The notes: generated by a model from the sequence alone, not told the origin. Counted from the first letter of the stretch, positions 1,144 through 33,847 are shown. The stretch: 64,000 bases of DNA from an uncultured Pseudomonadota bacterium (GCA_963834845.1 CAWICY010000004.1:2969530-3033529); one strand, 5' to 3'. Made by a program: numbers and translations.

Positions 1144-2177
1144 CGGACATCGACCCTGGTGAGGCGCGCGCCCTGCGCGGCGGCGTCGAAGCGCGCCGGC
1201 AGGAACTGCTCGATCAGCCACATCGCGGTGCGCGCATGGCTCGATAGCGCGCGCGTGGTGAAAACCGATCGGCCTCCCGCGAGCGCCAGGTAGACGAGAA
1301 GCTGGTCGGCGGCGTGCACGTCGAGCGAGGCGCCCGCCTCGAGATCGTCGCGCAGCGACGCGCCGACGCGCTCGCCGAGCGTCTCGGCGGGCACGCCGCG
1401 CTGCGCCACCTCGCCGGCGCCGAGCACGCTCGCCTCGGTGTCCGCCCAGGCGACAATCGCGCCGCCGCTGCCCTGCGCGGCGTCCGCACCGAGCGTTTCA
1501 ATCCAGATTTCCGCTTCCTCGCAGGCTACCGGTCCCAGCGCCTCGAACGTCGCCGAGCGCATGCGCTCGGCGATGTGCGAGGGGAGGTTGGCGACGTGCG
1601 CCGCGCCGCGCACGTCGAGCAGCCGGCCCGGCGTCGGCGCGGTGAACGGACGCAGGCGCGCGCCGTGTTCGAGCGCCAGCTCCACCTCGCCGCCGCCCTG
1701 CGGGAAATAGCCGCGCCGGCGCACGGCGAGGCTCAGGCGCGCGCCCATGCGCTCGAGCAGTCGCAGCAGCACCGCGCGGAAATAGTCGAGCGGCGGCGCG
1801 GCGCGCACGTCGGTGCCGCCTGCGACGAGCACGCGGCACGCGCGGCCGCTCGCGAGCATCACCGGGACGAGCGCCTGCAGCACCAGCGTCACGCTGCCCG
1901 CGGTGCCGACGTCGAAACGGAACTCGCCGCCGCGCGGCGCGCCGGGAACCACGTGCAGCTCGCGCGCGCCGAGCGCCAGGCCTTCGATGCGCGCGCTGCA
2001 CAGCTCGCCGACCGCGCGTACCGCGGTGAGGTGCTGCGCGGCGAGGCCCGGCTTCTTGCGCCGCGCGCGGATGTTGCGGATCTGCGCCGGCTGCCCGGTG
2101 ACCGCTGCCAGCGCGACCGCCGTGCGCAGCAGCTGGCCGCCGCCTTCGCCATGGGAGCCGTCGATATCGAGCATCAT
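1140..2177 (-). CDS. rtcA: RNA 3'-terminal phosphate cyclase
   Basis: 345-aa ORF with an RtcA-like pattern along its full length (LDIDGSHGEGGGQLLRTAVALAAVTGQP.IRNIRARRKKPGL; GGTDV..APP.DY; HAADQLLVYLALA). Its start abuts the PRTase stop and its stop overlaps the next start (ATGA). Confidence 0.9.
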   Translation of the reverse strand: MMLDIDGSHGEGGGQLLRTAVALAAVTGQPAQIRNIRARRKKPGLAAQHLTAVRAVGELCSARIEGLALGARELHVVPGAPRGGEFRFDVGTAGSVTLVLQALVPVMLASGRACRVLVAGGTDVRAAPPLDYFRAVLLRLLERMGARLSLAVRRRGYFPQGGGEVELALEHGARLRPFTAPTPGRLLDVRGAAHVANLPSHIAERMRSATFEALGPVACEEAEIWIETLGADAAQGSGGAIVAWADTEASVLGAGEVAQRGVPAETLGERVGASLRDDLEAGASLDVHAADQLLVYLALAGGRSVFTTRALSSHARTAMWLIEQFLPARFDAAAQGARLTRVDVR

Positions 2178-10600: not shown

Positions 10601-12340
10601 ATGCGCTCTCCCGACCCGCTCGCCATTGCCGCGCAACCGGCCGACGCGCTGCTCAATTCGACGCTGGCGCGGCTGACGCAGGGCATCGCGCCGGCGTCGA
10701 TCGCCGGCGCCTACCTCGACTGGGCGACGCACCTCGCCGGCTCGCCCGCCAAGTGGCAGGAGCTCGCCGTCAAGGCGCAGAGGAAGTTCAGCCGCTTCGC
10801 CCTGTACGCGATGCAGCCCCCGGGCAGCTCGGAGCCGTGCATCGCGCCGCTGCCGCAGGATCGGCGCTTCGAGCACCGCGACTGGCAGGCGTGGCCGTTC
10901 AATCTGCTGCAGCAGGGTTTCCTGCTCACCCAACAGTGGTGGTGGAACGCGACCACCGGCGTGCGCGGCGTCGATGCGCACCATGAGTACGTCGTCGAAT
11001 TCATGACGCGCCAGTGGCTCGACATGTTCTCTCCCTCCAACTTTCCCTGGAGCAACCCCGAGGTGCTGCGCGAGACCGTGCACCGCGGCGGCGCCAACCT
11101 GGTGCAGGGCGCGATCAACTGGTGGGACGACGCGCTGCGCATCGCCGCCAACCGGCCGCACATCGGGCTGGAGCGCTGGCGCGTCGGCGAGAACCTGGCG
11201 CTCACGCCCGGCAAAGTGGTCTACCGCAACCACCTCATCGAGCTGATGCAGTACGCGCCGCAGACCGCGACGGTGCGCCCCGAGCCGCTGCTGATCGTTC
11301 CGTCGTGGATCATGAAGTACTACATTCTCGACCTGCAGCCGCAGGACTCGCTGGTGCGCTTCCTCGTCGAGCGCGGCTACACGGTGTTCCTGATCTCGTG
11401 GAAGAACCCGGGCGCACGCGAGCGCGAACTCGGCATCGACGACTACATCAAGAGCGGGGTGCTGGCGGCGCTCGAGGCGATCGGCAAGATCGTCCCCGGG
11501 CGGCGCGCGCACGCGCTCGGCTACTGCCTCGGCGGCACCCTGCTCGCGATGGCCGGGGCGCTGCTGGCGCGCGAGGGCGAGGAGCGGCTGGCGACGCTGT
11601 CGCTGCTCGCCGCCGAGACCGATTTCGAGGAGCCGGGCGAGCTGTCGCTGTTCATCGACGAGAGCCAGATCAGCTTCCTCGAGGACATGATGTTCACGCG
11701 CGGCTACCTCGACGGCAAGGAGATGGCGGGGGCGTTCGCGCTGCTCAACTCCAAGGACCTGGTGTGGTCGCGCATGGTGCGCGACTACCTGATGGGCCAG
11801 CGCGTCGAGGTGTCGGATCTCGCGGCGTGGAACGCCGACGCGACGCGCATGCCCTACCGCATGCACAGCGATTACCTGCGGCGCCTGTACCTCGGCAACG
11901 ACTTCACGGAAGGGCGCTTCATGGTCGACGGGCGGCCGATCGCGCTGTCGGACATCCGGGCGCCGATGTTCGTCGTCGGCGCCGAGCGCGACCACGTCTC
12001 GCCATGGCGCTCGGTGTACAAGGTGAACCTGTTCGCGGATACCGAAGTGACCTTCCTGCTGACGAGCGGCGGGCACAACGTCGGCGTCGTCAATCCGGCG
12101 TCCGGCCCCTATCCCGGCTCGAACTACCGAATGGCGGCGCGCGCGAGCGAAGACCGCTACGTCGATCCCGAGACCTGGCAGGAGGCGACGCCCGCGCACC
12201 CCGGCTCATGGTGGCCCGAGTACGCCGCCTGGCTCGACGGGCGCTCGGGCGCGCCCGCGGCGCCGCCGGCGATGGGCGCACCGGACAAGGGCCTGCCGCC
12301 GCTGTACGACGCGCCCGGGCGCTATGTCCTCGAGGACTGA
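10601..12340 (+). CDS. phaC: class I poly(3-hydroxyalkanoate) synthase
   Basis: Intact 579-aa ORF with the lipase-box GYCLGG, FLISWKNPG and typical PhaC N- and C-terminal regions. Confidence 0.9.
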   Translation: MRSPDPLAIAAQPADALLNSTLARLTQGIAPASIAGAYLDWATHLAGSPAKWQELAVKAQRKFSRFALYAMQPPGSSEPCIAPLPQDRRFEHRDWQAWPFNLLQQGFLLTQQWWWNATTGVRGVDAHHEYVVEFMTRQWLDMFSPSNFPWSNPEVLRETVHRGGANLVQGAINWWDDALRIAANRPHIGLERWRVGENLALTPGKVVYRNHLIELMQYAPQTATVRPEPLLIVPSWIMKYYILDLQPQDSLVRFLVERGYTVFLISWKNPGARERELGIDDYIKSGVLAALEAIGKIVPGRRAHALGYCLGGTLLAMAGALLAREGEERLATLSLLAAETDFEEPGELSLFIDESQISFLEDMMFTRGYLDGKEMAGAFALLNSKDLVWSRMVRDYLMGQRVEVSDLAAWNADATRMPYRMHSDYLRRLYLGNDFTEGRFMVDGRPIALSDIRAPMFVVGAERDHVSPWRSVYKVNLFADTEVTFLLTSGGHNVGVVNPASGPYPGSNYRMAARASEDRYVDPETWQEATPAHPGSWWPEYAAWLDGRSGAPAAPPAMGAPDKGLPPLYDAPGRYVLED

Positions 12341-12407: not shown

Positions 12408-12854
12408 CTACGGCCGGATGTAGGTCCAGCCGGCGCGCTGCTTGTCGGCGATCTCGATCAGGCCGCCCGGCGCGACGCGCACCCCGCCGATCAGGTCGTC
12501 CTTGGTGAGTTTCATCGCGCGCATGGTCTCGCCGCAGGCGACGACGTCGATGCTCTTGTCCAGCGCCTAGCCGATGCGGTCGGTGACTTTCGATTCGCTC
12601 TTGAGCATGTTCAACCCCGGCCCGATCGCGACGATCTCGATCTCCGAGTTGTCCTTGCCGATGTTGCGCTGGAAGGCGAACGCGTTGTTGAGCGCGAGGT
12701 TCCAGATCTGCGGATTGTTCTCGGTGACCTGGATCACGATCTGGTATTTGCCCTTCGCCCCTTCGCCCGCCGCCGCGGCGTGCGCGCTGGGCGTGACGCC
12801 GCCGGCGAGGAGCGTGGTAGCGAGAATGACCATCAGAGCGGCGAGTCGTTTCAC
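12408..12854 (-). pseudogene. secreted DsrE/DsrF-like (COG1416-type) protein, paralog B, with an in-frame TAG
   Basis: ORF 12567..12854 (signal peptide, YQIVIQVTENNPQIWNLALNNA) stops at TAG 12567-12569. The same frame continues ALDKSIDVVACGETMRAMKLTKDDLIGGVRVAPGGLIEIADKQRAGWTYIRP*, colinear with paralog A. Confidence 0.75.
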
Positions 12855-12869
12855 TTCGGGTTCCCTCCG

Positions 12870-13301
12870 TTACGGGCGGATGTACGCCCAGCCCTCGGAC
12901 TGGCGCTTCATGATCTCGATCACGCCGCCCGGCACGACCGTCGCGCCGCCGACCAGATCGGCCTTATCGATCTTGAACTTCTTCATCGTGGTGGCGCAGG
13001 CGGCCAACTCGACGTTGCTGTCGAGCGCGGCATTGAGGCGGGCGGCGACCTTGGAGTCGGCCTTGAGCATGTAGATGCCGGGGCCGTAGGCGACGATCTC
13101 GATCGTCACCTTATCCTTGCCCAGCGCCTCCTGCATGTTCTGAGCGTTGTTGAGCGCGAGGTTCCATTTCGCCGGGTCGTTGTCGCTGACCTGCAGGACA
13201 GCGTGCGTCAGCGCCTTTTCGCCCGCGGCCAGCGCGGCGGGGGCGGCGGCCAGACCGGCCAGTCCGGCGACCAGCGTGATTGCTGCAAGTGCTTGTTTCA
13301 T
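12870..13301 (-). CDS. secreted DsrE/DsrF-like (COG1416-type) protein, paralog A
   Basis: 143-aa ORF with a signal peptide, LQVSDNDPAKWNLALNNAQN, the conserved Cys in LAACATTMKKF and a C-terminal EGWAYIRP. RBS GGAGAGGAGA. Confidence 0.8.
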   Translation of the reverse strand: MKQALAAITLVAGLAGLAAAPAALAAGEKALTHAVLQVSDNDPAKWNLALNNAQNMQEALGKDKVTIEIVAYGPGIYMLKADSKVAARLNAALDSNVELAACATTMKKFKIDKADLVGGATVVPGGVIEIMKRQSEGWAYIRP

Positions 13302-13363
13302 TGTCTCTCCTCTCCGTTTTCTAATGGTCTGTTCGCGGCGCGCAATGCCCGCGACCGATATAA

Positions 13364-13389
13364 GACGCGCAACCGCCGGAAATTATTCC
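13364..13389 (-). promoter_or_regulatory. candidate ECF-type promoter (GGAATA-N16-CGTC) reading toward the DsrE-like genes
   Basis: On the minus strand, GGAATA (13389..13384) is followed after exactly 16 nt by CGTC (13367..13364). The -35 element is one arm of the palindrome ATTCCATGGAAT. Confidence 0.45.
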
Positions 13390-13391
13390 AT

Positions 13392-13417
13392 GGAATAAAC
13401 TCGCACCCAGGAGCGTC
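13392..13417 (+). promoter_or_regulatory. candidate autoregulated ECF-type promoter (GGAATA-N16-CGTC) for the sigma/anti-sigma operon
   Basis: GGAATA 13392-13397, 16-nt spacer, CGTC 13414-13417. It is the mirror image of the minus-strand element and lies about 10 nt before ATG 13427. Confidence 0.45.
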
Positions 13418-13426
13418 ATTGGGCAC

Positions 13427-13969
13427 ATGGGGATGAAAGGCCTGTTCGGCGTGTCGGCCCGGTTCCGCGGTCAGGTGGAGGCGCAGCGCGAGCCGCTGTA
13501 CCGGCTCGCTTTTTCATGGTGCCATGACGGATCGCTGGCCGACGACCTGGTGCAGGAGACGCTGCTGCGCGCGCTCGACCGCGCCTCGCAGCTGAACGAC
13601 GTCCAGCGCTTGAAGCCCTGGCTGTGCGCCATCCTCGCCAACTGTCTGAAGGATCATTTCCGGCGCGTGCGGCCGCTCGAGCCGCTCGACGACGACATGC
13701 CGTCGCACGGCGAGACGCCGGAAGGCGCGAGCGCGAGCAGCCAGCTCGCGGCGCGCGTGCGCGCCGAGATCGGGCGCCTGCCGCTCGGGCAGCGCCAGGT
13801 GGTGACCCTCGTCGACCTAGAGGGCTTCTCCTACGCCGAGGTCGGCGAGATCCTCGCGGTGCCGGCCGGCACCGTGATGAGCCGGCTGTGCCGGGCGCGC
13901 GAGGCGCTCAGGGCGCGGTTGCTCGACCTCGCGGCCGAGGGGAACAACAAGATCAGGAGCATCCGATGA
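13427..13969 (+). CDS. ECF (sigma-70 family group 4) RNA polymerase sigma factor
   Basis: 180-aa ORF. Region 2 (LYRLAFSWCHDGSLADDLVQETLLRAL) and region 4 (LPLGQRQVVTLVDLEGFSYAEVGEILAVPAGTVMSRLCRAREAL). ATGA overlap with the next gene. Confidence 0.9.
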   Translation: MGMKGLFGVSARFRGQVEAQREPLYRLAFSWCHDGSLADDLVQETLLRALDRASQLNDVQRLKPWLCAILANCLKDHFRRVRPLEPLDDDMPSHGETPEGASASSQLAARVRAEIGRLPLGQRQVVTLVDLEGFSYAEVGEILAVPAGTVMSRLCRAREALRARLLDLAAEGNNKIRSIR

Positions 13970-14649
13970 GCCAGGAACGGGAAGTCTCGCAGGAGATGCG
14001 AAACGCGTTCGTCGACGGTCAGCTCGATGCCGCCGACTGGACCGCCCTGGTCGAGCGCATGGGCAGCGACGAGGCGCTCAGGCGCGAGGTATGCGAGCTG
14101 CGCACGCTCAAGGACATGACCAGAAGCGCCTATCTGGAAGCACGCTCGCGGCGCGCGGCGCCCGCGGCGAACCGCCGGGGCTGGGCGCGGGTGGCCGGTG
14201 TTGCGCTCGTCTTCGCACTGGCGGGTTGGTTTGCTCACGACGCCGTCGAGCGCAGCCGTGCCGTTGCCGAGCTGCACGCGGTGGCGGCCGACCGCATCCT
14301 GGTGCACGTCGCCTCGTCGCGCGGCGAGGTGGTCGATTCGGCGCTGCAGGAGGTGGAAGACTACCTGCGCGACGCGCGCGCCGCCGGACGGCGCGTCGAG
14401 GTCGAGATCGTCGCCAACAACGCCGGCATGGACATCCTGCGCGCCGATACCTCCGCCTACGCCAAGCGGCTCGAGCGCCTGCGCGCCGCGTACCCGAACC
14501 TGACCTACATCGCCTGCAACCAGACCGCCGACCGGCTGCGCGAGAAGGGCGTGGCGGTCAGGCTGCTGCCTGGTGTGCACGTCGCGCCGACCGCGCTCGA
14601 CGAGATCGTCAAGCGCATGCAGCAGGGCTGGGTCTACATCCGCGCCTGA
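13966..14649 (+). CDS. anti-sigma factor with one TM helix and a C-terminal periplasmic DsrE-like domain
   Basis: Starts at Met115 of ORF 13624..14649. The N-terminus NAFVDGQLDAADWTALVERMGSDEALRREV matches the anti-sigma motif. TM helix WARVAGVALVFALAGWF. The C-terminus ILVHVASS...VEIVANNAGMDIL...YIACNQTADRL...QQGWVYIRA is colinear with the three free DsrE-like paralogs. Confidence 0.75.
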   Translation: MSQEREVSQEMRNAFVDGQLDAADWTALVERMGSDEALRREVCELRTLKDMTRSAYLEARSRRAAPAANRRGWARVAGVALVFALAGWFAHDAVERSRAVAELHAVAADRILVHVASSRGEVVDSALQEVEDYLRDARAAGRRVEVEIVANNAGMDILRADTSAYAKRLERLRAAYPNLTYIACNQTADRLREKGVAVRLLPGVHVAPTALDEIVKRMQQGWVYIRA

Positions 14650-14657
14650 GGCGCGCC

Positions 14658-15716
14658 TCAGGGCACGATGCGCTCGGCGCGGAAGCGCGCGAGCAGCCGC
14701 ACGAACATCTCCTCGCTGTCGACCACGTCGTGGAAGCCGTGCAGGCGCGACTTGGTCACGCTCGACATCACGTCCCAGTCGCAGCCGAACACGTAGTCGC
14801 CGAACGGCCACGCGACCAGCTCGTCGAAGCGGTACGCCCGCAGGCCGTGCTTGCGGACCATCGCGTCCCATAGCGGAGCCTTGTCCGCCATGTGCGCCAC
14901 GAGCGAAATCGTCTGCGGCTCGGCCCAGGGCATCTCGAACGCCTCGGCGATGCGCGGCCACAGGTTGCACCAGCGGAAAGTATCGCCGTTGGTGATGTTG
15001 TAGGCCTGGTTGGCGCAGCGCCGCTCGGTCGCCGCCCAAAGCGCGGCGCTCGCCATGTGCGCCGACTCGGTCACCTGGTACACCGAGCGCCAGGCGCCGG
15101 GCTTGCCGGGAAAGCGCAGCGGCAGGCCGAGCTCCTTCGAGATCGCCGCGTACACCGCGATGACCGGCACGATGCTCATCGCCGTGCCCGGCGCGAAGCC
15201 GCACAGCGTCTGCGGGCGCAGCTCGGTCCAGCTCCAGCGCTTGCCGCGCTGGAACGCCGTCAGCCAGTCGATCTGGTCGAAGTAGTAGTTCGGGCCGAGG
15301 TGGCGCGGATCGTCCTCGCGCGCCGGGGTGCGAAACGGCCCCAGATGCGAGCCGTAGTACTTGGTGCCGGTCACCAGCACCACGCGCGCGAGGCCGGGCG
15401 CGAGCGCGTCGAGCGCCGACACCGAGTTGACCAGCATGTCGCGGTTGGCGGCGATGTTCCGGGCGTAGTCGGCGGCGGCGCCGGCGGCGGCCTGAAAGGC
15501 GCAGTAGAAGACATGCGTCGCGCGCTGCAAGTCCTGCAGCTTGGCCCCGGTGTCGGCCGGATCGAGCAGGTCGACCGAGACGTAGCGCACGCGCTCGCGA
15601 TCCTCGCCCCTGCGGCGCGACAGGCCGATCACCTGCCAGTCGGGCAGGGACGCGAGGCGCTCCACGATGTAGCGCCCGATCACGCCGAGCGCGCCGACCA
15701 CCACCGCGGTGTTCAT
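14658..15716 (-). CDS. SDR-family NAD-dependent epimerase/dehydratase-like oxidoreductase
   Basis: 352-aa ORF with an N-terminal Rossmann motif VVVGALGVIGRYIVERL. Confidence 0.75.
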   Translation of the reverse strand: MNTAVVVGALGVIGRYIVERLASLPDWQVIGLSRRRGEDRERVRYVSVDLLDPADTGAKLQDLQRATHVFYCAFQAAAGAAADYARNIAANRDMLVNSVSALDALAPGLARVVLVTGTKYYGSHLGPFRTPAREDDPRHLGPNYYFDQIDWLTAFQRGKRWSWTELRPQTLCGFAPGTAMSIVPVIAVYAAISKELGLPLRFPGKPGAWRSVYQVTESAHMASAALWAATERRCANQAYNITNGDTFRWCNLWPRIAEAFEMPWAEPQTISLVAHMADKAPLWDAMVRKHGLRAYRFDELVAWPFGDYVFGCDWDVMSSVTKSRLHGFHDVVDSEEMFVRLLARFRAERIVP

Positions 15717-15719
15717 GGC

Positions 15720-16145
15720 TCAGGGTCGCGCGTAGGCCCAGCCTTCGAGCTGGCGCCGCATGACGTGCGCGAGGCCGGTCTTGACGAACTCCACCCCGCC
15801 CAGGATGTCGTCGCGCTTGAAGCCGAGCGTGGCCATGGTGTTCTCGCAGGCGATCACGCGGATCCCCTCGTCGATGACCTGGGTCACGCGGTCGCGCCAG
15901 TCCGAGTCGTCGAGCAGCATGCGGATCGCCGGCCCGTAGACGACGATCTCGATCTGCACCTTGTCGGGCCCGAGGTCGTTGCGCACGTTGCGCGCGTTGG
16001 CGAGCGCGAGTCCCCAGACCTTGGGGTTTTCGTCGCTGATCTGGATCAGCAGGCGCTGCGGCCTGGCGGGCGGTTGCGCGCGCGCGCCGCGCGGCAGCTG
16101 CAGCAGGCCGAGCGCGGCGAACGAGGCGAGGAAGCGTCGACGCAT
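15720..16145 (-). CDS. secreted DsrE/DsrF-like (COG1416-type) protein, paralog C
   Basis: Starts at the internal ATG 16145 of ORF 15720..16703 (MRRRFLASFAALGLLQL signal peptide). LLIQISDENPKVWGLALANARN, VIACENTMATLG and a C-terminal EGWAYARP. Confidence 0.8.
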   Translation of the reverse strand: MRRRFLASFAALGLLQLPRGARAQPPARPQRLLIQISDENPKVWGLALANARNVRNDLGPDKVQIEIVVYGPAIRMLLDDSDWRDRVTQVIDEGIRVIACENTMATLGFKRDDILGGVEFVKTGLAHVMRRQLEGWAYARP

Positions 16146-16169
16146 GTCGCAAAGTATCATGCCACGGTC

Positions 16170-16931
16170 ATGATCAAGACGCACGGTATCCTGCCCGCCC
16201 TCGCACTGCTGCTCGCGGCAGGCGGCGCGCGCGCGGCGCATCCCTTGATCACCGAGGACACCGGCACCGTGGGCACCGGCAACTACCAGCTCGAGCTGAC
16301 CACCGAGGTCGCGCGCCAGACCGACGACGGCAGCACGGTGCATGGCGTGCAGCCCGCGGCGATGTTCAGCTACGGCATGCTGCCGGATGCCGACCTGCAG
16401 CTCAGCCAGGCCTACCTCAGGATCGTCAGCGACGACGGTACCACGCGCGACGTGACCGACGGCCCGCTCGACACCGCGCTCGACCTCAAGTGGCGCTTCT
16501 ACGAGCGCGGCGCGCTCAGCCTGGGGCTGAAGCCCGGGATCACGCTGCCGACCGGCGACGACGCGCGCGGCCTCGGTGCGGGCGAAGCGACCTGGGGCGC
16601 GCTCCTGATCGGCTCCTACCAACCCGGGCCGCTCGCGTTCCACTCGCACCTGGGCTACCGGCGCTTTCGCAACACGCTCGGCTGGCGCGAGTCGCTCGCG
16701 CACATCTCGGGGGCGCTGGTGTACACGGAATCCGCCAAGCTCAAGCTGGCCGTGGACGTGAGCGCGGACACCAACCCGCTGCCCTCGGCCTACGGCACGT
16801 TGCGCTACGCGGTGCTCGGGCTGATCTACTCGCCGCGCGCCGACCTCGATATCGACTTAGGCGTCAAGTTCCGCCTGAACGGTGTCGTGTTCGACCGCAG
16901 CCTGCTGCTCGGCGCCACGCTGCGCTGGTGA
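16170..16931 (+). CDS. outer-membrane beta-barrel protein (phenol-degradation MetA-pathway / 'transporter' family-like)
   Basis: Starts at the internal ATG 16170 of ORF 14892..16931. Signal peptide MIKTHGILPALALLLAAGGARAA, then alternating beta-strand pattern with terminal ...LLLGATLRW. Divergent from paralog C with only 24 nt between the starts. Confidence 0.65.
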   Translation: MIKTHGILPALALLLAAGGARAAHPLITEDTGTVGTGNYQLELTTEVARQTDDGSTVHGVQPAAMFSYGMLPDADLQLSQAYLRIVSDDGTTRDVTDGPLDTALDLKWRFYERGALSLGLKPGITLPTGDDARGLGAGEATWGALLIGSYQPGPLAFHSHLGYRRFRNTLGWRESLAHISGALVYTESAKLKLAVDVSADTNPLPSAYGTLRYAVLGLIYSPRADLDIDLGVKFRLNGVVFDRSLLLGATLRW

Positions 16932-16942
16932 GCCTCGCCGCA

Positions 16943-17335
16943 CTAGCGGTCGCGCAACCCGACCACCGCCTCGATCTCGACCTTCATTCCCGGGATCGCG
17001 AGCGCCTGGACGCCGATCAGCGTGCTCGCCGGGCGCGCCTTGCCGAAGAACTCCTGCCGCACCGGATTGATCCTGGCGCGGTCCGCCACATCGGTCAGGA
17101 ACACGGTCACCTTGAGCACGTCGCCGAAATCCGCGCCCGCGGCGTAGAGCACCAGCTTCATGTTGCGGAAGATCTGGCGCGTCTGCGCCGCCGCGTCGTC
17201 GCCGCCGACCAGCTTGCCCTGATCGTCGAGCGGCGCGACGCCGGACACGAACAGCAGGTCGCCCCAGCGCACCGCGTCGCAGTAGTGGCTGATCGGGGCG
17301 GGCAGCCCCGCAGGCTGGAATTCCTCTCGCTTCAT
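16943..17335 (-). CDS. RidA/YjgF/endoribonuclease L-PSP family protein
   Basis: 130-aa ORF: PISHYCDAVRWGDLLFVSGV...AQTRQIFRNMKLVL...KVTVFLTD. Confidence 0.85.
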   Translation of the reverse strand: MKREEFQPAGLPAPISHYCDAVRWGDLLFVSGVAPLDDQGKLVGGDDAAAQTRQIFRNMKLVLYAAGADFGDVLKVTVFLTDVADRARINPVRQEFFGKARPASTLIGVQALAIPGMKVEIEAVVGLRDR

Positions 17336-17436: not shown

Positions 17437-17979
17437 ATGAGCGACACCACACAGCAACCCCGCCGCCGGTTCTTCAGGCGCGCAGCCATCGCCGCCATGA
17501 TCGCCGGCCTGGCCGGCGGCATCGGCGCCAAGGCTTTTGGCCACGGGGGCTACGGCGACGGGCACCGCGGCGGCGGCTTCATGAGCGGGCCGATCGACCC
17601 GGCGCAGATGGAAGCGCGCGTCAACCGCATGCTCGGGCACCTGTACGTCGACATCAACGCCACCGAGGAGCAAAAGCAGAAGATCGACCCGATCGTCAAG
17701 AGCGCGGCCAAGGAGCTGATCCCGCTGCGCCAGCAGATGCGCACGGCGCGCAAGCAGGCGATGGAGCTGTTCACGAAGGAGACCATCGACCGCGCGGCGA
17801 TCGAGAAGCTGCGCGAGGAGCAGATTAAGCTCGCCGAGCAGGCCTCGAAGCGCTTCACCCAGGCGCTGACCGACGTCGCCGAGGTGCTGACCCCCGCGCA
17901 ACGCACGGAGCTCGCCGAGCGCATGAGCCGCCGGTTCGGAAGATACGGCGGCTGGCACGGCCGTCACGGACGGGGATAG
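17437..17979 (+). CDS. periplasmic Spy/CpxP-family (LTXXQ) protein
   Basis: 180-aa ORF. Twin-arginine-like signal RRRFFRRAAIAAMIAGLAGG, Gly/His-rich stretch, helical body with INATEEQKQKI and LTPAQRTELAERM motifs. Confidence 0.75.
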   Translation: MSDTTQQPRRRFFRRAAIAAMIAGLAGGIGAKAFGHGGYGDGHRGGGFMSGPIDPAQMEARVNRMLGHLYVDINATEEQKQKIDPIVKSAAKELIPLRQQMRTARKQAMELFTKETIDRAAIEKLREEQIKLAEQASKRFTQALTDVAEVLTPAQRTELAERMSRRFGRYGGWHGRHGRG

Positions 17980-17992
17980 GTAAACTGCGCGC

Positions 17993-18679
17993 GTGGCCGC
18001 GCATATCCTGCTGATTGAGGACGATCCCCGCCTGGCCGAGATGGTGTCCGAATATCTCGGCGAGGCGGGGTTTCGCGTGGCGACCGCCGGCAGCGGCGAG
18101 GAGGGGCTCGCGACGTTCGCGCGCGAGCCCTGCGACGCGCTGGTGCTCGACTTGGCGCTGCCCGGCATCGACGGGCTCGAGGTATGCCGCCGGCTGCGCG
18201 CGTCGTCGGACGTCCCGGTGCTGATGCTGACCGCGCGCGGCGACGCCATGGACCGCGTCGTCGGCCTCGAGATCGGCGCCGACGATTATCTTCCGAAGCC
18301 GTTCGAGCCGCGCGAGCTGCTGGCGCGGCTGCGCGCCATCCTGCGGCGCAGGGGCGGGGCGGCGCGCGGCGACCTGCTGCGCTTCGGGCGCGTCGAGATC
18401 GACCGCGGCGCGCGCAGCGTGCGCGTCGACGGCGCAGAGAAGAGCCTCACGTCGCACCAGTTCGCGCTGCTCGTGGCGCTTGCCGAGAACGCGGGGCGCG
18501 TGATGTCGCGTGACGCGCTGATGGATGCGCTGCGCGGCGAGCCGCTCGAGGCCTTCGACCGCTCGATCGACGTGCACGTGTCGCGCATCCGCCAAGCCAT
18601 CGAGGACGATCCGAAAAAGCCGCGCCGCATCGTCACCGTGCGCGGCGCCGGCTACGTGTTCGCCAAGGCGCAGGACTGA
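17993..18679 (+). CDS. OmpR-family two-component response regulator
   Basis: 228-aa ORF with a GTG start. Receiver domain (ILLIEDD..., LVLDLALPGIDG) plus a winged-helix C-terminus (IVTVRGAGYVF). Confidence 0.9.
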   Translation: MAAHILLIEDDPRLAEMVSEYLGEAGFRVATAGSGEEGLATFAREPCDALVLDLALPGIDGLEVCRRLRASSDVPVLMLTARGDAMDRVVGLEIGADDYLPKPFEPRELLARLRAILRRRGGAARGDLLRFGRVEIDRGARSVRVDGAEKSLTSHQFALLVALAENAGRVMSRDALMDALRGEPLEAFDRSIDVHVSRIRQAIEDDPKKPRRIVTVRGAGYVFAKAQD

Positions 18680-19920
18680 TGCGCAGGCTGTACCTGCGCG
18701 TCTACCTCGCGGTGGTCGCGAGCCTGGTGGTGTTCGCGCTCGCCGCGGGATTCCTGTGGCGCCAGCTCGCCGACCCGGGGCTGGCGCGGCCCGCTTACGA
18801 GGCCGCCGAACGGCTGGCGCAGAACGCGCTGCCGCCGGTCGACGCGCCGCTCGGCGCGCAGCAGGCCGCGCTCGAGCGACTGGCTGCCGACTTGCGTGCC
18901 GACGTCGCGCTGTTCGACGCCGAGCGCAAGCCGATTGCGTTCGTCGGCCGCCCCTTGCGCCCGCCGCGCCCGGAGGTGCAGGAAAGCGGCTGGCTGCGGC
19001 GCTTCGGCGGCCCGCCGGCCTGGGGCATCAAGCTGCCCGACGGCCGCTGGCTGGTGGCGAGCGTCCCGCGCAACCGCCGGCACCCGGCCTGGGGACTGTT
19101 CTTCACGCTGGCGCTGCTGGCGATCGGCGTGGGCGTCGGTGCCTATCCGGTGGTGCGCCGCCTGACGCGCCGGCTGGAGAAGCTGCAGGTGGGGGTCGAG
19201 TCGCTCGGCTCGGGCGACCTGGCGGCGCGCGTCGAGGTCGAAGGCGGCGACGAGGTCGCGCGCCTCGCCGAGAGCTTCAACCGTGCCGCGGCGCGCATCG
19301 AGGCGCTGGTCGGCGCGCACAAGTCGCTGCTCGCCAACGCCTCGCACGAGCTGCGCACGCCGCTCACGCGCATCCGCATGGCGGTCGAGCTGATGAAGGA
19401 GGGCGCCGAGCCGAAGAGGAAGATCCAGTTCGAGCGCGACATCGCCGAGCTCGACCAGCTGATCGACGAGATCCTGCTCGCCAGCCGGCTCGATGCGGTC
19501 GACGGGCGCGAGGCCGACGAGGAGGTGGACCTGCTGGCGCTCGCGGCCGAGGAATGCGCGCGCTACGAGGGCGCCGACCTCGACGGCGAGCACGTCGTGC
19601 TGCGCGGGGACCCGCGGCTGCTGCGCCGGCTGATCCGCAACCTGCTGGAGAACGCGCGCCGCCACGGCGCCCCGCCGGTCGAGCTGCGCGTGCGCAGGAG
19701 CGTGGCCGGCGCCGAGATCTCGGTCTGCGACCGCGGCCCGGGAGTGCCCGAGGGCGAGCGCGAGCGCGTGTTCGAGCCGTTCTTCCGCCATGCCGCGGGC
19801 GCAAGCGGCGCCGGGCTGGGCCTCGCGCTGGTGCGCCAGATCGCGCGCCGCCACGGCGGCGACGCGCGCTGCCTGGCGCGCGCGGGCGGCGGCGCCTGCT
19901 TCGTCGCCGAGCTGCGCTAG
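18679..19920 (+). CDS. HAMP-domain sensor histidine kinase
   Basis: 413-aa ORF. Two TM helices, HAMP domain, H-box LLANASHELRTPLT, N/G boxes. TGATG overlap with the regulator gene. Confidence 0.9.
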   Translation: MRRLYLRVYLAVVASLVVFALAAGFLWRQLADPGLARPAYEAAERLAQNALPPVDAPLGAQQAALERLAADLRADVALFDAERKPIAFVGRPLRPPRPEVQESGWLRRFGGPPAWGIKLPDGRWLVASVPRNRRHPAWGLFFTLALLAIGVGVGAYPVVRRLTRRLEKLQVGVESLGSGDLAARVEVEGGDEVARLAESFNRAAARIEALVGAHKSLLANASHELRTPLTRIRMAVELMKEGAEPKRKIQFERDIAELDQLIDEILLASRLDAVDGREADEEVDLLALAAEECARYEGADLDGEHVVLRGDPRLLRRLIRNLLENARRHGAPPVELRVRRSVAGAEISVCDRGPGVPEGERERVFEPFFRHAAGASGAGLGLALVRQIARRHGGDARCLARAGGGACFVAELR

Positions 19921-31435: not shown

Positions 31436-33847
31436 ATGACGGAGCTCATCGTCAACGGCAGGACGCACCAGGTGCAGGCCGACGCGGACAAGCCGCTGCT
31501 CTGGGTGCTGCGCGACCAGCTCGGGCTGAAGGGAACGAAGTACGGCTGCGGCGTCGGCCTATGCGGCGCCTGCGTGGTGCTGCTCGACGGCGCGCCCAAC
31601 CATGCCTGCATGGTGCCGCTGGCGCGCGTCGGCGCGCGCCGGGTGACCACGATCGAGGGCCTTGCCGCGGACCACCCGGTGCGGCGCGCGTGGGTCGACG
31701 AGCAGGTGCCGCAATGCGGCTACTGCCAGCCGGGGCAGATCCTGAGCGCCGCCGCGCTGCTGGCGACGGCGGCTGCGCCTTCGGACGGCCAGATCGACGA
31801 GGCAATGTCGGGCGTGTTGTGCCGCTGCGGCACCTATGCGCGCATCCGGCGCGCCGTGCATGCCGCGGCCGCCGGCAAGCCGCGGGGCGCCGCGCGTGCA
31901 AAGCTTCCCGACCTCCTTAGCGACCTGCCGCCGGACGCGGGCGCGCAGATGAACGACTGGATCTGGATCGATGGCGCCGGCACGGTCACGTTGATGATCA
32001 ACCATTCGGAGATGGGCCAGGGCGCGCTCACGGGGCTGGCCGCGCTCGCGGCCGAAGAGCTGGAGGTTCCTCTCGCGCGCGTGCGCACGGTTTTCGCGCC
32101 GGCCGATGCGCGCTACCGCAACGGCTACTGGGGCGAGCAGTTCACCGGCGGCTCGAGCAGCATGCGCGGCGAATGGACCCCGCTGCGCGAGGCGGCGGCG
32201 CGGACCCGCGTGCGCCTGGTGCGCGCCGCCGCGCGCCGCTGGGGCGTCGCGGCCGCGGCATGCCACGCCGCGGACGGCGAAGTGCTGCACCCGCCGAGCG
32301 GCCGGCGCCTCGGCTACGGCGAGCTGGGCGCCGAGGCCGCGCGGCTGGCCGAGCCGCGCCGCGCACCGCTCAAGGCGCGGGCCGATTGGCGCACCATCGG
32401 CAAGCCGCTCGCGCGCCTGGACATTCCAGCGATGTGCCTCGGGCAGACGCGCTACGGCATCGACGTCGCGCCCGCGGGCGCGCTGGTGGCGGTGGTGGCG
32501 CGCAGCCCGGTATTCGGCGGGCGCCCGAGGCGCTTCGACGACCGCGCGGCGCGCGCGATTCCCGGCGTGCGGCAGGTGCGCGCCATCGCAAGCGGCGTCG
32601 CGGTGGTGGCGGACGACTTCTGGTCGGCGCAGCGCGGGCGCGAAGCGCTGCGCATCGCGTGGCAGGCGGGCAGGCACGCGCGCCTGAGCGGCGCGCAGAT
32701 CGAGCGGCGCCTGCGCGCAGCGCTCGGGCGGGGCGGCAAGGCCGCGATCGAGGCCACCTACCACACGCCCTACCTCGCGCACGCCACCATTGAGCCGATG
32801 AACTGCGTCGCCGAGGTGCGGCGCGATGGCTGCGACGTATGGACCGGCACGCAGCACCAGGCCGAGACCCAGGCGGTGGCGGCGCGCATCGCCGGCATCG
32901 CCAAGGCAAAAGTGCGCGTCCATACCCAATTCCTCGGCGGCGGCTTCGGGCGGCGGCTGGAAACCGACTTCGTCGCCGAGGCGGTGGAACTGTCCAAGGC
33001 GCTCGGCAGCGCGGTGCAGGTGGTCTGGACGCGCGCCGACGACCTGCAGCACGACTTCTACCGTCCCGCGCACGCGGCGCGGATGCAGGCGAGCCTCGCC
33101 GAGAACGGGCTGCCCGCCGCCTGGCGCGTGCGCGTCGCCGGCCCGGAGCTCGCGCTCGACGGCATCAACGTGCCGTATGCGGTGCCGGGCCTGCGCGAGG
33201 AGCGTGTCGAGGTCGCGTCGCCGCTGCCGACCGGGCCGTGGCGCTCGGTCGGCGCGTCGAACAACGCCTTCGCCATCGAGTGCTTCATCGACGAGCTCGC
33301 GCACCGCGCCGGGCGCGATCCGCTCGAGTACCGGCTCGCGCTGCTCGCCAACGCGCCGCGCCACGCCGCCGTGCTGCGGCTGGCGGCCGCGCGCGCCGGC
33401 TGGGGCGCGCCCCTCGAGCCCGGCCGTGGCCGCGGCGTCGCGGTGTACGAATCCTTCGGCAGCGTCGTCGCACAGGTGATCGAGGCGCGCGCCGCCGGGC
33501 GGGCGATCCGCGTCGAGCGCGTGGTGTGCGCGATCGATTGCGGTATCGCCGTGCTGCCCGATGCGGTGCACGCGCAGCTCGAAGGCAGCGTCGCGCTCGG
33601 CCTGTCGGCGGCGCTGAAAGAGCAGATCCGCGTGGCATCGGGCCGCGTGCGGCAGGCGAGCTTCGCCGACTACCCGATCCTGACGCTCGCCGAAATGCCG
33701 CCGGTCGAGACGCACATCCTTGAAAGCAGCGCCGAGCCGGGCGGCGTCGGCGAGCCGGCGGTGCCGGTCGTCGCACCGGCGCTGGCGAACGCGGTGTTCG
33801 CGGCGAGCGGGCGGCGGCTGCGCCGCCTGCCGCTGCGCCTACGATGA
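31436..33847 (+). CDS. fused (2Fe-2S)-binding subunit and molybdopterin-binding subunit of an IorAB/aldehyde-oxidase-type oxidoreductase
   Basis: Starts at the internal ATG 31436. The N-terminus [13 protein letters not shown]...[16 protein letters not shown]...[10 protein letters not shown]...[10 protein letters not shown] is IorA-like. It continues without a stop into ...[21 protein letters not shown]...[15 protein letters not shown]...GGGFGRR...[28 protein letters not shown], which is IorB-like. Confidence 0.8.

Follow-up and report, generated by a model that had tools for sequence, protein, structure and literature searches.

The stretch of DNA described here, a window of 64,000 nucleotides from an uncultured Pseudomonadota bacterium (GCA_963834845.1 CAWICY010000004.1:2969530-3033529), contains a gene for an extracytoplasmic function (ECF) sigma factor that overlaps the gene for a membrane-spanning anti-sigma factor. 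The periplasmic part of this anti-sigma factor is a DsrE-like domain, and three genes for free proteins with the same domain, named P1, P2 and P3 in the following, lie close by. This sigma/anti-sigma switch is probably a so far undescribed regulator of bacterial sulfur metabolism. The core of the locus, situated in a region of about 70% G+C around the pair, comprises the following features (positions counted from the first letter of the window):

12408..12854, minus strand: P2, second free DsrE-like paralog, in the same orientation as P1, with its GTG start codon located 15 nt behind the stop codon of P1
12870..13301, minus strand: P1, free secreted DsrE-like protein of 143 aa, MTH1491/COG1416 subfamily, with a single cysteine (Cys102 in LAACATT)
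13364..13389, minus strand: predicted ECF-type promoter toward P1-P2, GGAATAATTTCCGGCGGTTGCGCGTC, with -35 element GGAATAA and -10 element CGTC
13392..13417, plus strand: predicted autoregulatory ECF-type promoter toward the sigma gene, GGAATAAACTCGCACCCAGGAGCGTC
13427..13969, plus strand: ECF (group 4) sigma factor of 180 aa (Pfam Sigma70_r2 and Sigma70_r4_2, TIGR02937)
13966..14649, plus strand: anti-sigma factor of 227 aa, its start overlapping the sigma stop (ATGA); it consists of an N-terminal helical domain (residues ~1-60, with an AFVDGQLD motif), a transmembrane helix (~73-92; 14182-14241) and a periplasmic DsrE-like domain (~108-227; 14287-14646)
14515..14517, plus strand: codon of anti-sigma Cys184 (IACNQT), the only periplasmic cysteine and the candidate sensing residue

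Translation confirmed the open reading frames (ORFs) that an initial annotation of the window had placed here. That annotation had also spoken of three secreted paralogs; three free DsrE-like genes are indeed present, but the copy at 12408-12854 (P2) is broken by an in-frame TAG at 12567-12569 (minus strand). Since nine orthologs have a glutamine at this position (RIGQALD or RIDQALD), the stop represents either a nonsense change from CAG to TAG or an error of sequencing or assembly. The signal peptides of the free paralogs were judged by eye from a hydrophobic N-terminus followed by AxA. While those of P1 and P2 look Sec-type, the N-terminus of P3 (16103-16145) reads MRRRFLASFAALG and resembles a twin-arginine translocation (Tat) signal. 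A Tat signal as a trait of the P3 family was rejected, as the RRRFL/RR motif is kept by only some P3 orthologs.

A DsrE-like domain in an anti-sigma factor and its free paralogs

The 180-aa protein has sigma-2 and sigma-4 as its only regions (Sigma70_r2 48.5 bits, Sigma70_r4_2 55.7 bits), scores 73.8 bits against the TIGR02937 ECF model (cut-off 42.9) and finds SigH, SigW, SigE and AlgU as its relatives in the PDB. An ECF equivalog could not be assigned, with all NCBIfam equivalogs below their cut-off, and in a tblastn search of plasmids the best alphaproteobacterial ECF relatives, found in an RpoE6-like context, were only about 40% identical.

The downstream 227-aa protein is a predicted anti-sigma factor, an assignment which we base mainly on its position, topology and conservation, the support from homology being weak. 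In the AlphaFold2 model, calculated from an alignment of 115 homologs, the N-terminus forms three confident helices (residues 9-58), after which come a basic stretch and then a hydrophobic helix (~73-92). With this topology, the DsrE-like domain is placed outside the cytoplasm. A profile of 24 anti-sigma N-termini weakly matches the N-domains of RseA and MucA (8Z6G, 6IN7; E=0.006-0.007), and Pfam returned RseA_N in 8/24 and zf-HC2 in 5/24 of these N-termini, all below threshold. We also considered the zinc-binding anti-sigma (ZAS) subclass; as the N-domain has a single cysteine (C43) and lacks the His-x3-Cys-x2-Cys (HxxxCxxC) motif, the protein does not belong to the ZAS proteins. This cytoplasmic C43 (VCELR; 14092-14094) lies outside any zinc motif and is nevertheless kept in at least 90% of the 115 homologs.

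The periplasmic domain of the anti-sigma factor is a DsrE-like alpha/beta fold of the MTH1491/COG1416 branch. The initial annotation had proposed that this domain is colinear with the three free proteins and DsrE-like, and both proposals withstood closer inspection: the C-terminus of the anti-sigma factor aligns properly with the free paralogs over a colinear alignment of all four proteins, and the DsrE-like identity is upheld by profile searches, by sequence search of the PDB and by the predicted structure. In pairwise BLASTP comparisons, the anti-sigma factor matched P1 with E=1e-11 (36% identity over 85 aa) and P3 with 6e-6, and P1 matched P3 with 7e-36. The free proteins exceed the gathering score of the Pfam DsrE family (PF02635; 22.7 bits) with 39.8 bits for P1, 36.2 bits for P2 (stop masked) and 26.7 bits for P3, and the matches of P1 in the PDB are 1L1S, the archaeal protein MTH1491 (E=3.2e-17), and 2PD2, which is ST0148 (6.7e-8). 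The C-terminal domain of the anti-sigma factor itself stays below the Pfam threshold (14.6 bits, E=0.039), and Pfam and NCBIfam scans gave nothing significant for this part of the protein. It is assigned to the DsrE-like proteins through its matches in the PDB: by sequence it finds 1L1S with E=1.7e-6, and the model, which reaches a predicted local distance difference test score (pLDDT) of 81 overall and about 90 in both domains (for the DsrE-like one over residues 110-227), led in a Foldseek search to 1L1S (E=1.5e-8, TM-score 0.82), followed by 2PD2 and by 8UJA, a design derived from 2PD2. No other match with E<1e-3 was obtained for the domain in this search of the PDB.

The motifs singled out in the initial annotation fared differently. 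All four proteins have the AC..T motif with its cysteine and, at their end, GW.Y.R, while the proposed hhhQhSD..P..W start is found in the free proteins but not in the anti-sigma domain, which reads ILVHVASSRGEVV and carries an invariant histidine where the free proteins have a glutamine. The conserved cysteine follows the third beta-strand, and Cys184 of the anti-sigma factor aligns with the cysteine of the free paralogs as well as with that of MTH1491.

The full-length anti-sigma architecture was recovered in 149 protein clusters and about 85 genomic loci, and the species-representative collection has it in more than 80 genomes, where its members are annotated only as 'hypothetical' or as 'DsrE/DsrF family'. 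In every locus with enough sequence, an ECF sigma gene lies directly upstream. The closest relatives of the window are metagenome-assembled genomes (MAGs) of soil and groundwater Burkholderiales, and the family is rich in sulfur-oxidising Beta- and Gammaproteobacteria, including isolates of Thioalkalivibrio denitrificans and T. sulfidiphilus as well as Thiohalobacter, Thiogranum, Sulfuricella, Gallionellaceae, Sedimenticolaceae, Thiotrichales, Woeseiaceae and Ectothiorhodospiraceae. Among the 115 aligned anti-sigma homologs 13 positions are invariant, including His114, Glu147, Asn151, Gly154, Cys184 and Gly221-Trp222-x-Tyr224. The free paralogs from the same loci have the cysteine equivalent to Cys184 in 63/63 cases and no other cysteine in the mature protein in 57/63. 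At E<=1e-10 the free DsrE-like family comprises at least 4,155 clusters, all of them unnamed, and is thus far larger than the anti-sigma family, so that the sensor domain looks like a duplicated copy of a free carrier that was recruited as a receptor.

Predicted promoters and the sulfur genes of related loci

P1 and the sigma gene are separated by 125 bp that include the palindrome TTATTCCATGGAATAA, which provides the -35 elements of both divergent promoter sites. These two sites (13364-13389 and 13392-13417) are the only occurrences of GGAATAA-N15-CGTC in the 64 kb with one mismatch allowed, against 0.34 expected; an exact scan of the window with GGAAT-N17-CGTC yielded a third, non-GGAATAA site at 32537-32562 (0.44 expected). 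In 0.99 Mb of related loci the pattern GGAATA-N15-17-CGTC was found at 113 sites in comparison to 3.7 expected from first-order Markov simulations, and the sequence of the spacer varies freely while the motif is kept, which is the pattern of a phylogenetic footprint. Both divergent sites were also present in 4/4 further loci. The most distant members, in Thioalkalivibrio and Thiogranum, carry the variants GGAATAAA-N15-CATCT or -TATCT.

To see what the motif precedes, we tallied the first gene 3' of all 115 sites (the 113 in related loci and the two in the window). This gene codes for the sigma factor at 60 sites, for a free DsrE-like protein at 34 and for SoxX or SoxY at nine; a porin-like gene and a CpxP-like gene, the latter most likely by chance, follow at one site each, and at ten sites no gene was recognisable. 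GGAATAA-N15-CGTC was not found upstream of P3 or of the nearby outer-membrane barrel gene, nor elsewhere in the whole window with a relaxed -10 element, and the predicted output within the window would be limited to the sigma operon and P1-P2. The predicted promoter together with the gene overlap agrees with the pattern of autoregulation and co-transcription of group 4 ECF sigma factors. Between the CGTC of the sigma promoter and the ATG of the sigma gene lie 9 nt (13417-13429), which contain no Shine-Dalgarno sequence. This spacing is constant, the start of the motif being at -36 in the majority of Burkholderiales loci. The mapped promoters of Sinorhizobium meliloti are likewise listed with 9 nt after CGTC (PMC6180224). 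By analogy, the sigma mRNA may be leaderless, if the listed S. meliloti sequences end at the start site.

The link to sulfur emerges from the genes beside the pair in related loci. The clearest case is locus L059, in which a minus-strand operon of soxX-soxY-soxZ-soxA-(103 aa)-soxB-dsrE-like begins 38 nt after the motif; SoxY and SoxZ score above the Pfam thresholds, and SoxX, SoxA and SoxB above the NCBIfam equivalog cut-offs (SoxB with 833 bits). The same arrangement of motif and sox genes recurs in L051, L052, L058 and L061. In L031 soxY-soxZ follow the motif and soxX was not detected at that place, and in L029, L032 and L077 (Sulfuricella) the divergent gene pair is soxYZ. A Burkholderiales relative (L086) has a divergent operon dsrE-soxY-soxZ-soxA-soxX-soxB, the first gene product of which is 54% identical to P1, and its sigma operon runs on into a YeeE/YedE-type Sulf_transp gene. 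Another Burkholderiales-type locus (L083; 844-7683, 11159-20741) carries an operon of dsrE and Sulf_transp divergent from the pair, which is located between i) a complete cbb (Calvin-cycle) operon with RuBisCO, phosphoribulokinase (PRK), fructose-1,6-bisphosphatase (FBPase) and transketolase and ii) an sHdr-type sulfur-oxidation cluster, which starts with an ArsR-type regulator of its own and continues with LbpA, HdrB2C2, HdrA, HdrB1C1, DsrE3 and LplA.

An additional group of genes points to the uptake of sulfur compounds. In 18 gammaproteobacterial loci the divergent dsrE-like gene is followed by a gene for a 470-aa outer-membrane porin-like protein (e.g. L044, 111-1520), which had no match in Pfam or NCBIfam, and in L051, L054, L061 and L076 (~3.5-7.2 kb; partial in L058) a Sulf_transp gene comes next on the same strand. 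This gene order suggests a trans-envelope route for sulfur uptake that would lead through a channel in the outer membrane, over a carrier in the periplasm and to an importer in the inner membrane. The location of free DsrE-like genes in both sox and porin-dsrE-yeeE operons suggests that their products are periplasmic sulfur carriers, which we consider their most likely role. Besides, the divergent motif of a Thiohalobacter MAG (L040) precedes a gene of the metallo-beta-lactamase (MBL) fold (~1500-1750, minus strand), which matches best, with 114 bits and thus below cut-off, the dioxygenase part of the sulfurtransferase/dioxygenase Blh. In six gammaproteobacterial loci (L059, 2350-3306; L051, L052, L054, L058, L061) the gene that comes immediately behind the anti-sigma gene encodes a periplasmic oxyanion-binding protein (SBP_bac_11) of the ModA/CysP fold with weak similarity to ModA, CysP and Sbp. 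Genes for an ABC transporter are not found next to it, and the protein could be a partner that presents the ligand to the sensor.

Proposed mechanism and alternative explanations

Taken as a whole, we estimate at roughly 60% the probability that the pair is a module reporting on reduced sulfur compounds in the periplasm. A periplasmic sulfur- or redox-sensing ECF system had already been suggested in the initial annotation, and the link to sulfur gained support from the motif in front of sox and dsrE-like genes, from the yeeE-like and sHdr neighbours and from the taxonomy of the sulfur oxidisers that carry the family.

In such a system, the anti-sigma factor would hold the sigma factor in the cytoplasm via its short RseA-like helical domain, pass the membrane once and expose the DsrE-like domain on the other side. 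A sulfur species could then modify or occupy this domain, with thiosulfate, sulfane sulfur or persulfide, and sulfite as candidates. The likeliest route would be S-sulfuration or thiosulfonation of Cys184, either directly or with the sulfur handed over by a free DsrE-like carrier; according to a study of DsrE3A and TusA, cysteines of the DsrE family reportedly carry sulfur in the form of persulfide or thiosulfonate. YeeE, for its part, serves thiosulfate uptake. As a consequence of the modification, the anti-sigma factor might be inactivated by a conformational change or by regulated proteolysis, a release step modelled on the RseA type, and the freed sigma factor would transcribe from GGAATAA-N15-CGTC promoters. 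Its targets would be the sigma operon and P1-P2 here, and soxXYZAB or dsrE-porin-yeeE-like operons in other genomes. The free paralogs, once induced, would serve as carriers in the periplasm and may pass their load to the sensor or take it up from there; the initial annotation had supposed that they might compete with the sensor or deliver the signal to it. Only tentatively do we go one step further and propose that the DsrE fold serves as an anti-sigma receptor switched by S-sulfuration or thiosulfonation of a single cysteine, possibly by relay from free carriers, and that the pair might be the dedicated regulator of periplasmic Sox and of porin-DsrE-YeeE uptake in many Beta- and Gammaproteobacteria.

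Several points weigh against sulfur sensing by the pair. All functional claims are computational, the connection to sulfur is a comparative one, and for this organism it is drawn by homology, as no sox, shdr or yeeE-like homolog was found in the 64-kb window; likewise, many related loci (e.g. L084 and L085) have no sulfur gene within 10 kb. The genomes nearest to the window are MAGs from soil Burkholderiales without established physiology. The promoters are predictions, and the assignment of the anti-sigma N-domain is statistically weak (E ~0.006; Pfam below threshold). In the few publications found on the MTH1491 subfamily, no biochemical function is demonstrated for it. Finally, a CpxP-like/heavy-metal-resistance protein and a two-component system next door would fit a response to envelope or metal stress.

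This last point leads to a different explanation, in which the pair senses thiol-reactive envelope stress (HOCl, the soft metals Cu, Hg and Cd, or selenium) via an exposed Cys/His pair and the free DsrE-like proteins serve as thiol buffers. The single periplasmic cysteine together with the invariant His114 would suit such a sensor, a Metal_resist/LTXXQ protein with an OmpR-type two-component system adjoins the pair in the window and in 12 relatives, and sulfur genes are missing from the window. However, the two-component neighbour is confined to the closest clade, whereas sox, yeeE-like, sHdr and persulfide-dioxygenase-like genes stand beside the pair in several separate clades, with the motif in front of the sox genes, and no gene for metal efflux or detoxification was seen 3' of the motif. 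We therefore regard thiol stress as an unlikely signal. The DsrE-like domain could also be a mere docking module for the free paralogs, for instance in mixed trimers, in the way RseB binds RseA; the system would then monitor the abundance, loading or folding of the carriers, and the cysteine of the anti-sigma factor would itself be unreactive to the signal. Sensor and free paralogs have one fold, MTH1491 is said to be oligomeric in the report on 1L1S, and the N-domain resembles that of RseA and MucA; moreover, the free paralogs are the commonest predicted members of the regulon (34 sites), which would close a feedback loop. Docking thus fits most of the data and explains the invariant cysteine less well: the conservation of Cys184 in all 115 homologs argues for chemistry and not for docking alone, and in about 20 loci a free dsrE gene is absent from the vicinity. 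On balance, we think it improbable that docking accounts for the system by itself. That the C-terminal domain is a degenerate relic, attached to a generic autoregulated ECF pair and accompanied by DsrE-like neighbours through local duplication, appears very improbable. The domain does fall below the Pfam DsrE threshold and one of the adjacent paralogs has, in the present sequence, already become a pseudogene, but strong purifying conservation from Burkholderiales to Ectothiorhodospiraceae with 13 invariant positions, a confident fold (pLDDT ~90) and the conserved promoter wiring to dsrE and sox genes are at odds with a relic.

Relation to known systems and genes outside the core

The closest functional analogue of the proposed sulfur-sensing pair is the ECF26 system RpoE4/EcfR4 with its target sorT. 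In S. meliloti, RpoE1/EcfR1 and RpoE4/EcfR4 are activated by sulfite that arises from thiosulfate or taurine, and they control the sulfite oxidase gene sorT (PMC3511301, PMC6180224). Both systems share an autoregulated ECF sigma factor co-transcribed with a membrane anti-sigma factor and a small regulon, predicted in our case, of periplasmic sulfur-oxidation genes. The mapped promoters of rpoE4, TGGAATAAGCGAGGCAGCTCGCTCGTCTC (GGAATAAG-N14-CGTCT), and of sorT, GGGAATTTTCCGGGGCGTCAGTCGTCTC (GGAATTT...CGTCT), are available for comparison (PMC6180224), and the promoter core found here is identical to the mapped RpoE1/RpoE4 sites (GGAATAA-N15-CGTCT; PMC6180224 Table 1). In contrast, the S. meliloti anti-sigma factors are described with a COG5662 domain (PMC3511301) and not with a DsrE-like one, our sigma factor reaches only the above-mentioned ~40% identity to alphaproteobacterial ECFs, and the predicted targets are dsrE-like, sox and yeeE-like genes instead of sorT. 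Given the DsrE-like partner, the sigma factor would represent at most a divergent subgroup of ECF26.

A comparable topology is known from RpoE-RseA-RseB of Escherichia coli and AlgU-MucA-MucB of Pseudomonas aeruginosa, which also rely on a single-pass anti-sigma factor with an N-terminal sigma-binding helical domain, to which ours shows the weak match given above, and with a periplasmic C-terminal domain for which a soluble protein of the periplasm could act as a guard. Unlike in these systems, the periplasmic domain is an unrelated DsrE-like alpha/beta fold and no genes for RseB, DegS or RseP are linked to the pair, so that proteolytic release is an analogy only. Regarding the fold itself, MTH1491 (1L1S) and ST0148 (2PD2) share the cysteine and the C-terminal GW.Y.RP motif, but they are cytoplasmic archaeal proteins with no assigned function, whereas here the fold occurs either in exported proteins or as part of a transmembrane anti-sigma factor. 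DsrE3A/TusA and DsrEFH belong to the same DsrE superfamily with an active-site cysteine, and their thiosulfonate and persulfide chemistry is the one proposed for the sensor; however, these cytoplasmic proteins form another subfamily and play no part in signalling.

Concerning sulfur oxidation, a secreted DsrE-like protein (MHY1_00068) is encoded in the sox operon of Methylovirgula thiovorans HY1, and its authors suspected a periplasmic sulfur transfer (PMC9371685). This arrangement parallels the dsrE-like genes within the sox operons of L059 and L086, with the difference that MHY1_00068 is uncharacterised and that a connection to an ECF factor was not mentioned for it. A further protein of Methylovirgula, termed 'membrane-bound DsrE-like', was considered as a possible anti-sigma factor and rejected, since it is DsrE2A (PMC9371685). 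ECF sigma factors influence sox expression in Arcobacter according to microarray data (PMC3445524), and both these factors and SoxR are likewise linked to sox control; SoxR is a cytoplasmic repressor, unlike the system described here. Searches of the literature that combined DsrE with anti-sigma or ECF, or that were directed at MTH1491 or at DsrE-like proteins of the periplasm, revealed no description of this architecture, and the main text of the ECF reclassification paper mentions neither DsrE nor sulfur. Both the type of sensor domain in this ECF/anti-sigma pair and the regulon predicted for it are therefore new.

To our knowledge, it is poorly understood how most sulfur oxidisers sense extracytoplasmic reduced sulfur and switch their sox genes, and the characterised sox regulators known to us are cytoplasmic ArsR-type repressors and a few two-component systems. 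The pair offers a concrete and testable candidate for extracytoplasmic sulfur sensing: its sensor domain and promoter motif are defined, the cysteine is invariant, a regulon can be predicted, and homologs are at hand in culturable Thioalkalivibrio isolates. In addition, it provides a first functional handle on the large uncharacterised family of secreted DsrE-like proteins of the MTH1491 type and would extend the sulfur-associated GGAATAA-CGTC promoter class beyond the Alphaproteobacteria.

Next to the core, the window carries the following genes:

14658..15716, minus strand: PRISE-like short-chain dehydrogenase/reductase (SDR) of 352 aa, 3' of P3 (Pfam PRISE 117 bits); neighbour only
15720..16145, minus strand: P3, third free DsrE-like paralog of 141 aa, heading the P3-SDR unit and convergent with the anti-sigma gene; neighbour
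16170..16931, plus strand: outer-membrane beta-barrel of the Phenol_MetA_deg family, divergent from P3 (PF13557 25 bits, cut-off 22); neighbour only
16943..17335, minus strand: RidA / L-PSP family protein (Pfam Ribonuc_L-PSP 112 bits); neighbour only
17437-19920: CpxP/Spy-like periplasmic protein (Pfam Metal_resist, LTXXQ), then an OmpR-type response regulator and a histidine kinase

The initial annotation had pointed to the barrel, the SDR and RidA next to the pair; they do adjoin it, yet they are no conserved parts of the system. Their synteny with the pair exists only in the closest clade, and for the barrel only in some members of it. P3 is near the pair only in the closest relatives as well and is best regarded as a neighbouring paralog, not demonstrably a member of the regulon. 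As no motif lies upstream of P3 or of the barrel, we dropped P3, SDR, barrel and RidA from the core system. The CpxP-like and two-component genes were rejected as a part of the system because their synteny is limited to the closest clade: they accompany the pair in about 12 close relatives, lie 8 kb away in L084 and are not found with it in the wider family. In some relatives P3 is co-transcribed with ridA. On the other side of the locus, a 579-aa ORF at 10601-12340 resembles, as judged by eye from a GYCLGG lipase-box-like motif, a polyhydroxyalkanoate (PHA) synthase (PhaC), and the C-terminal part of this PhaC-like ORF is also present upstream of the locus in two relatives (L003 and L010).

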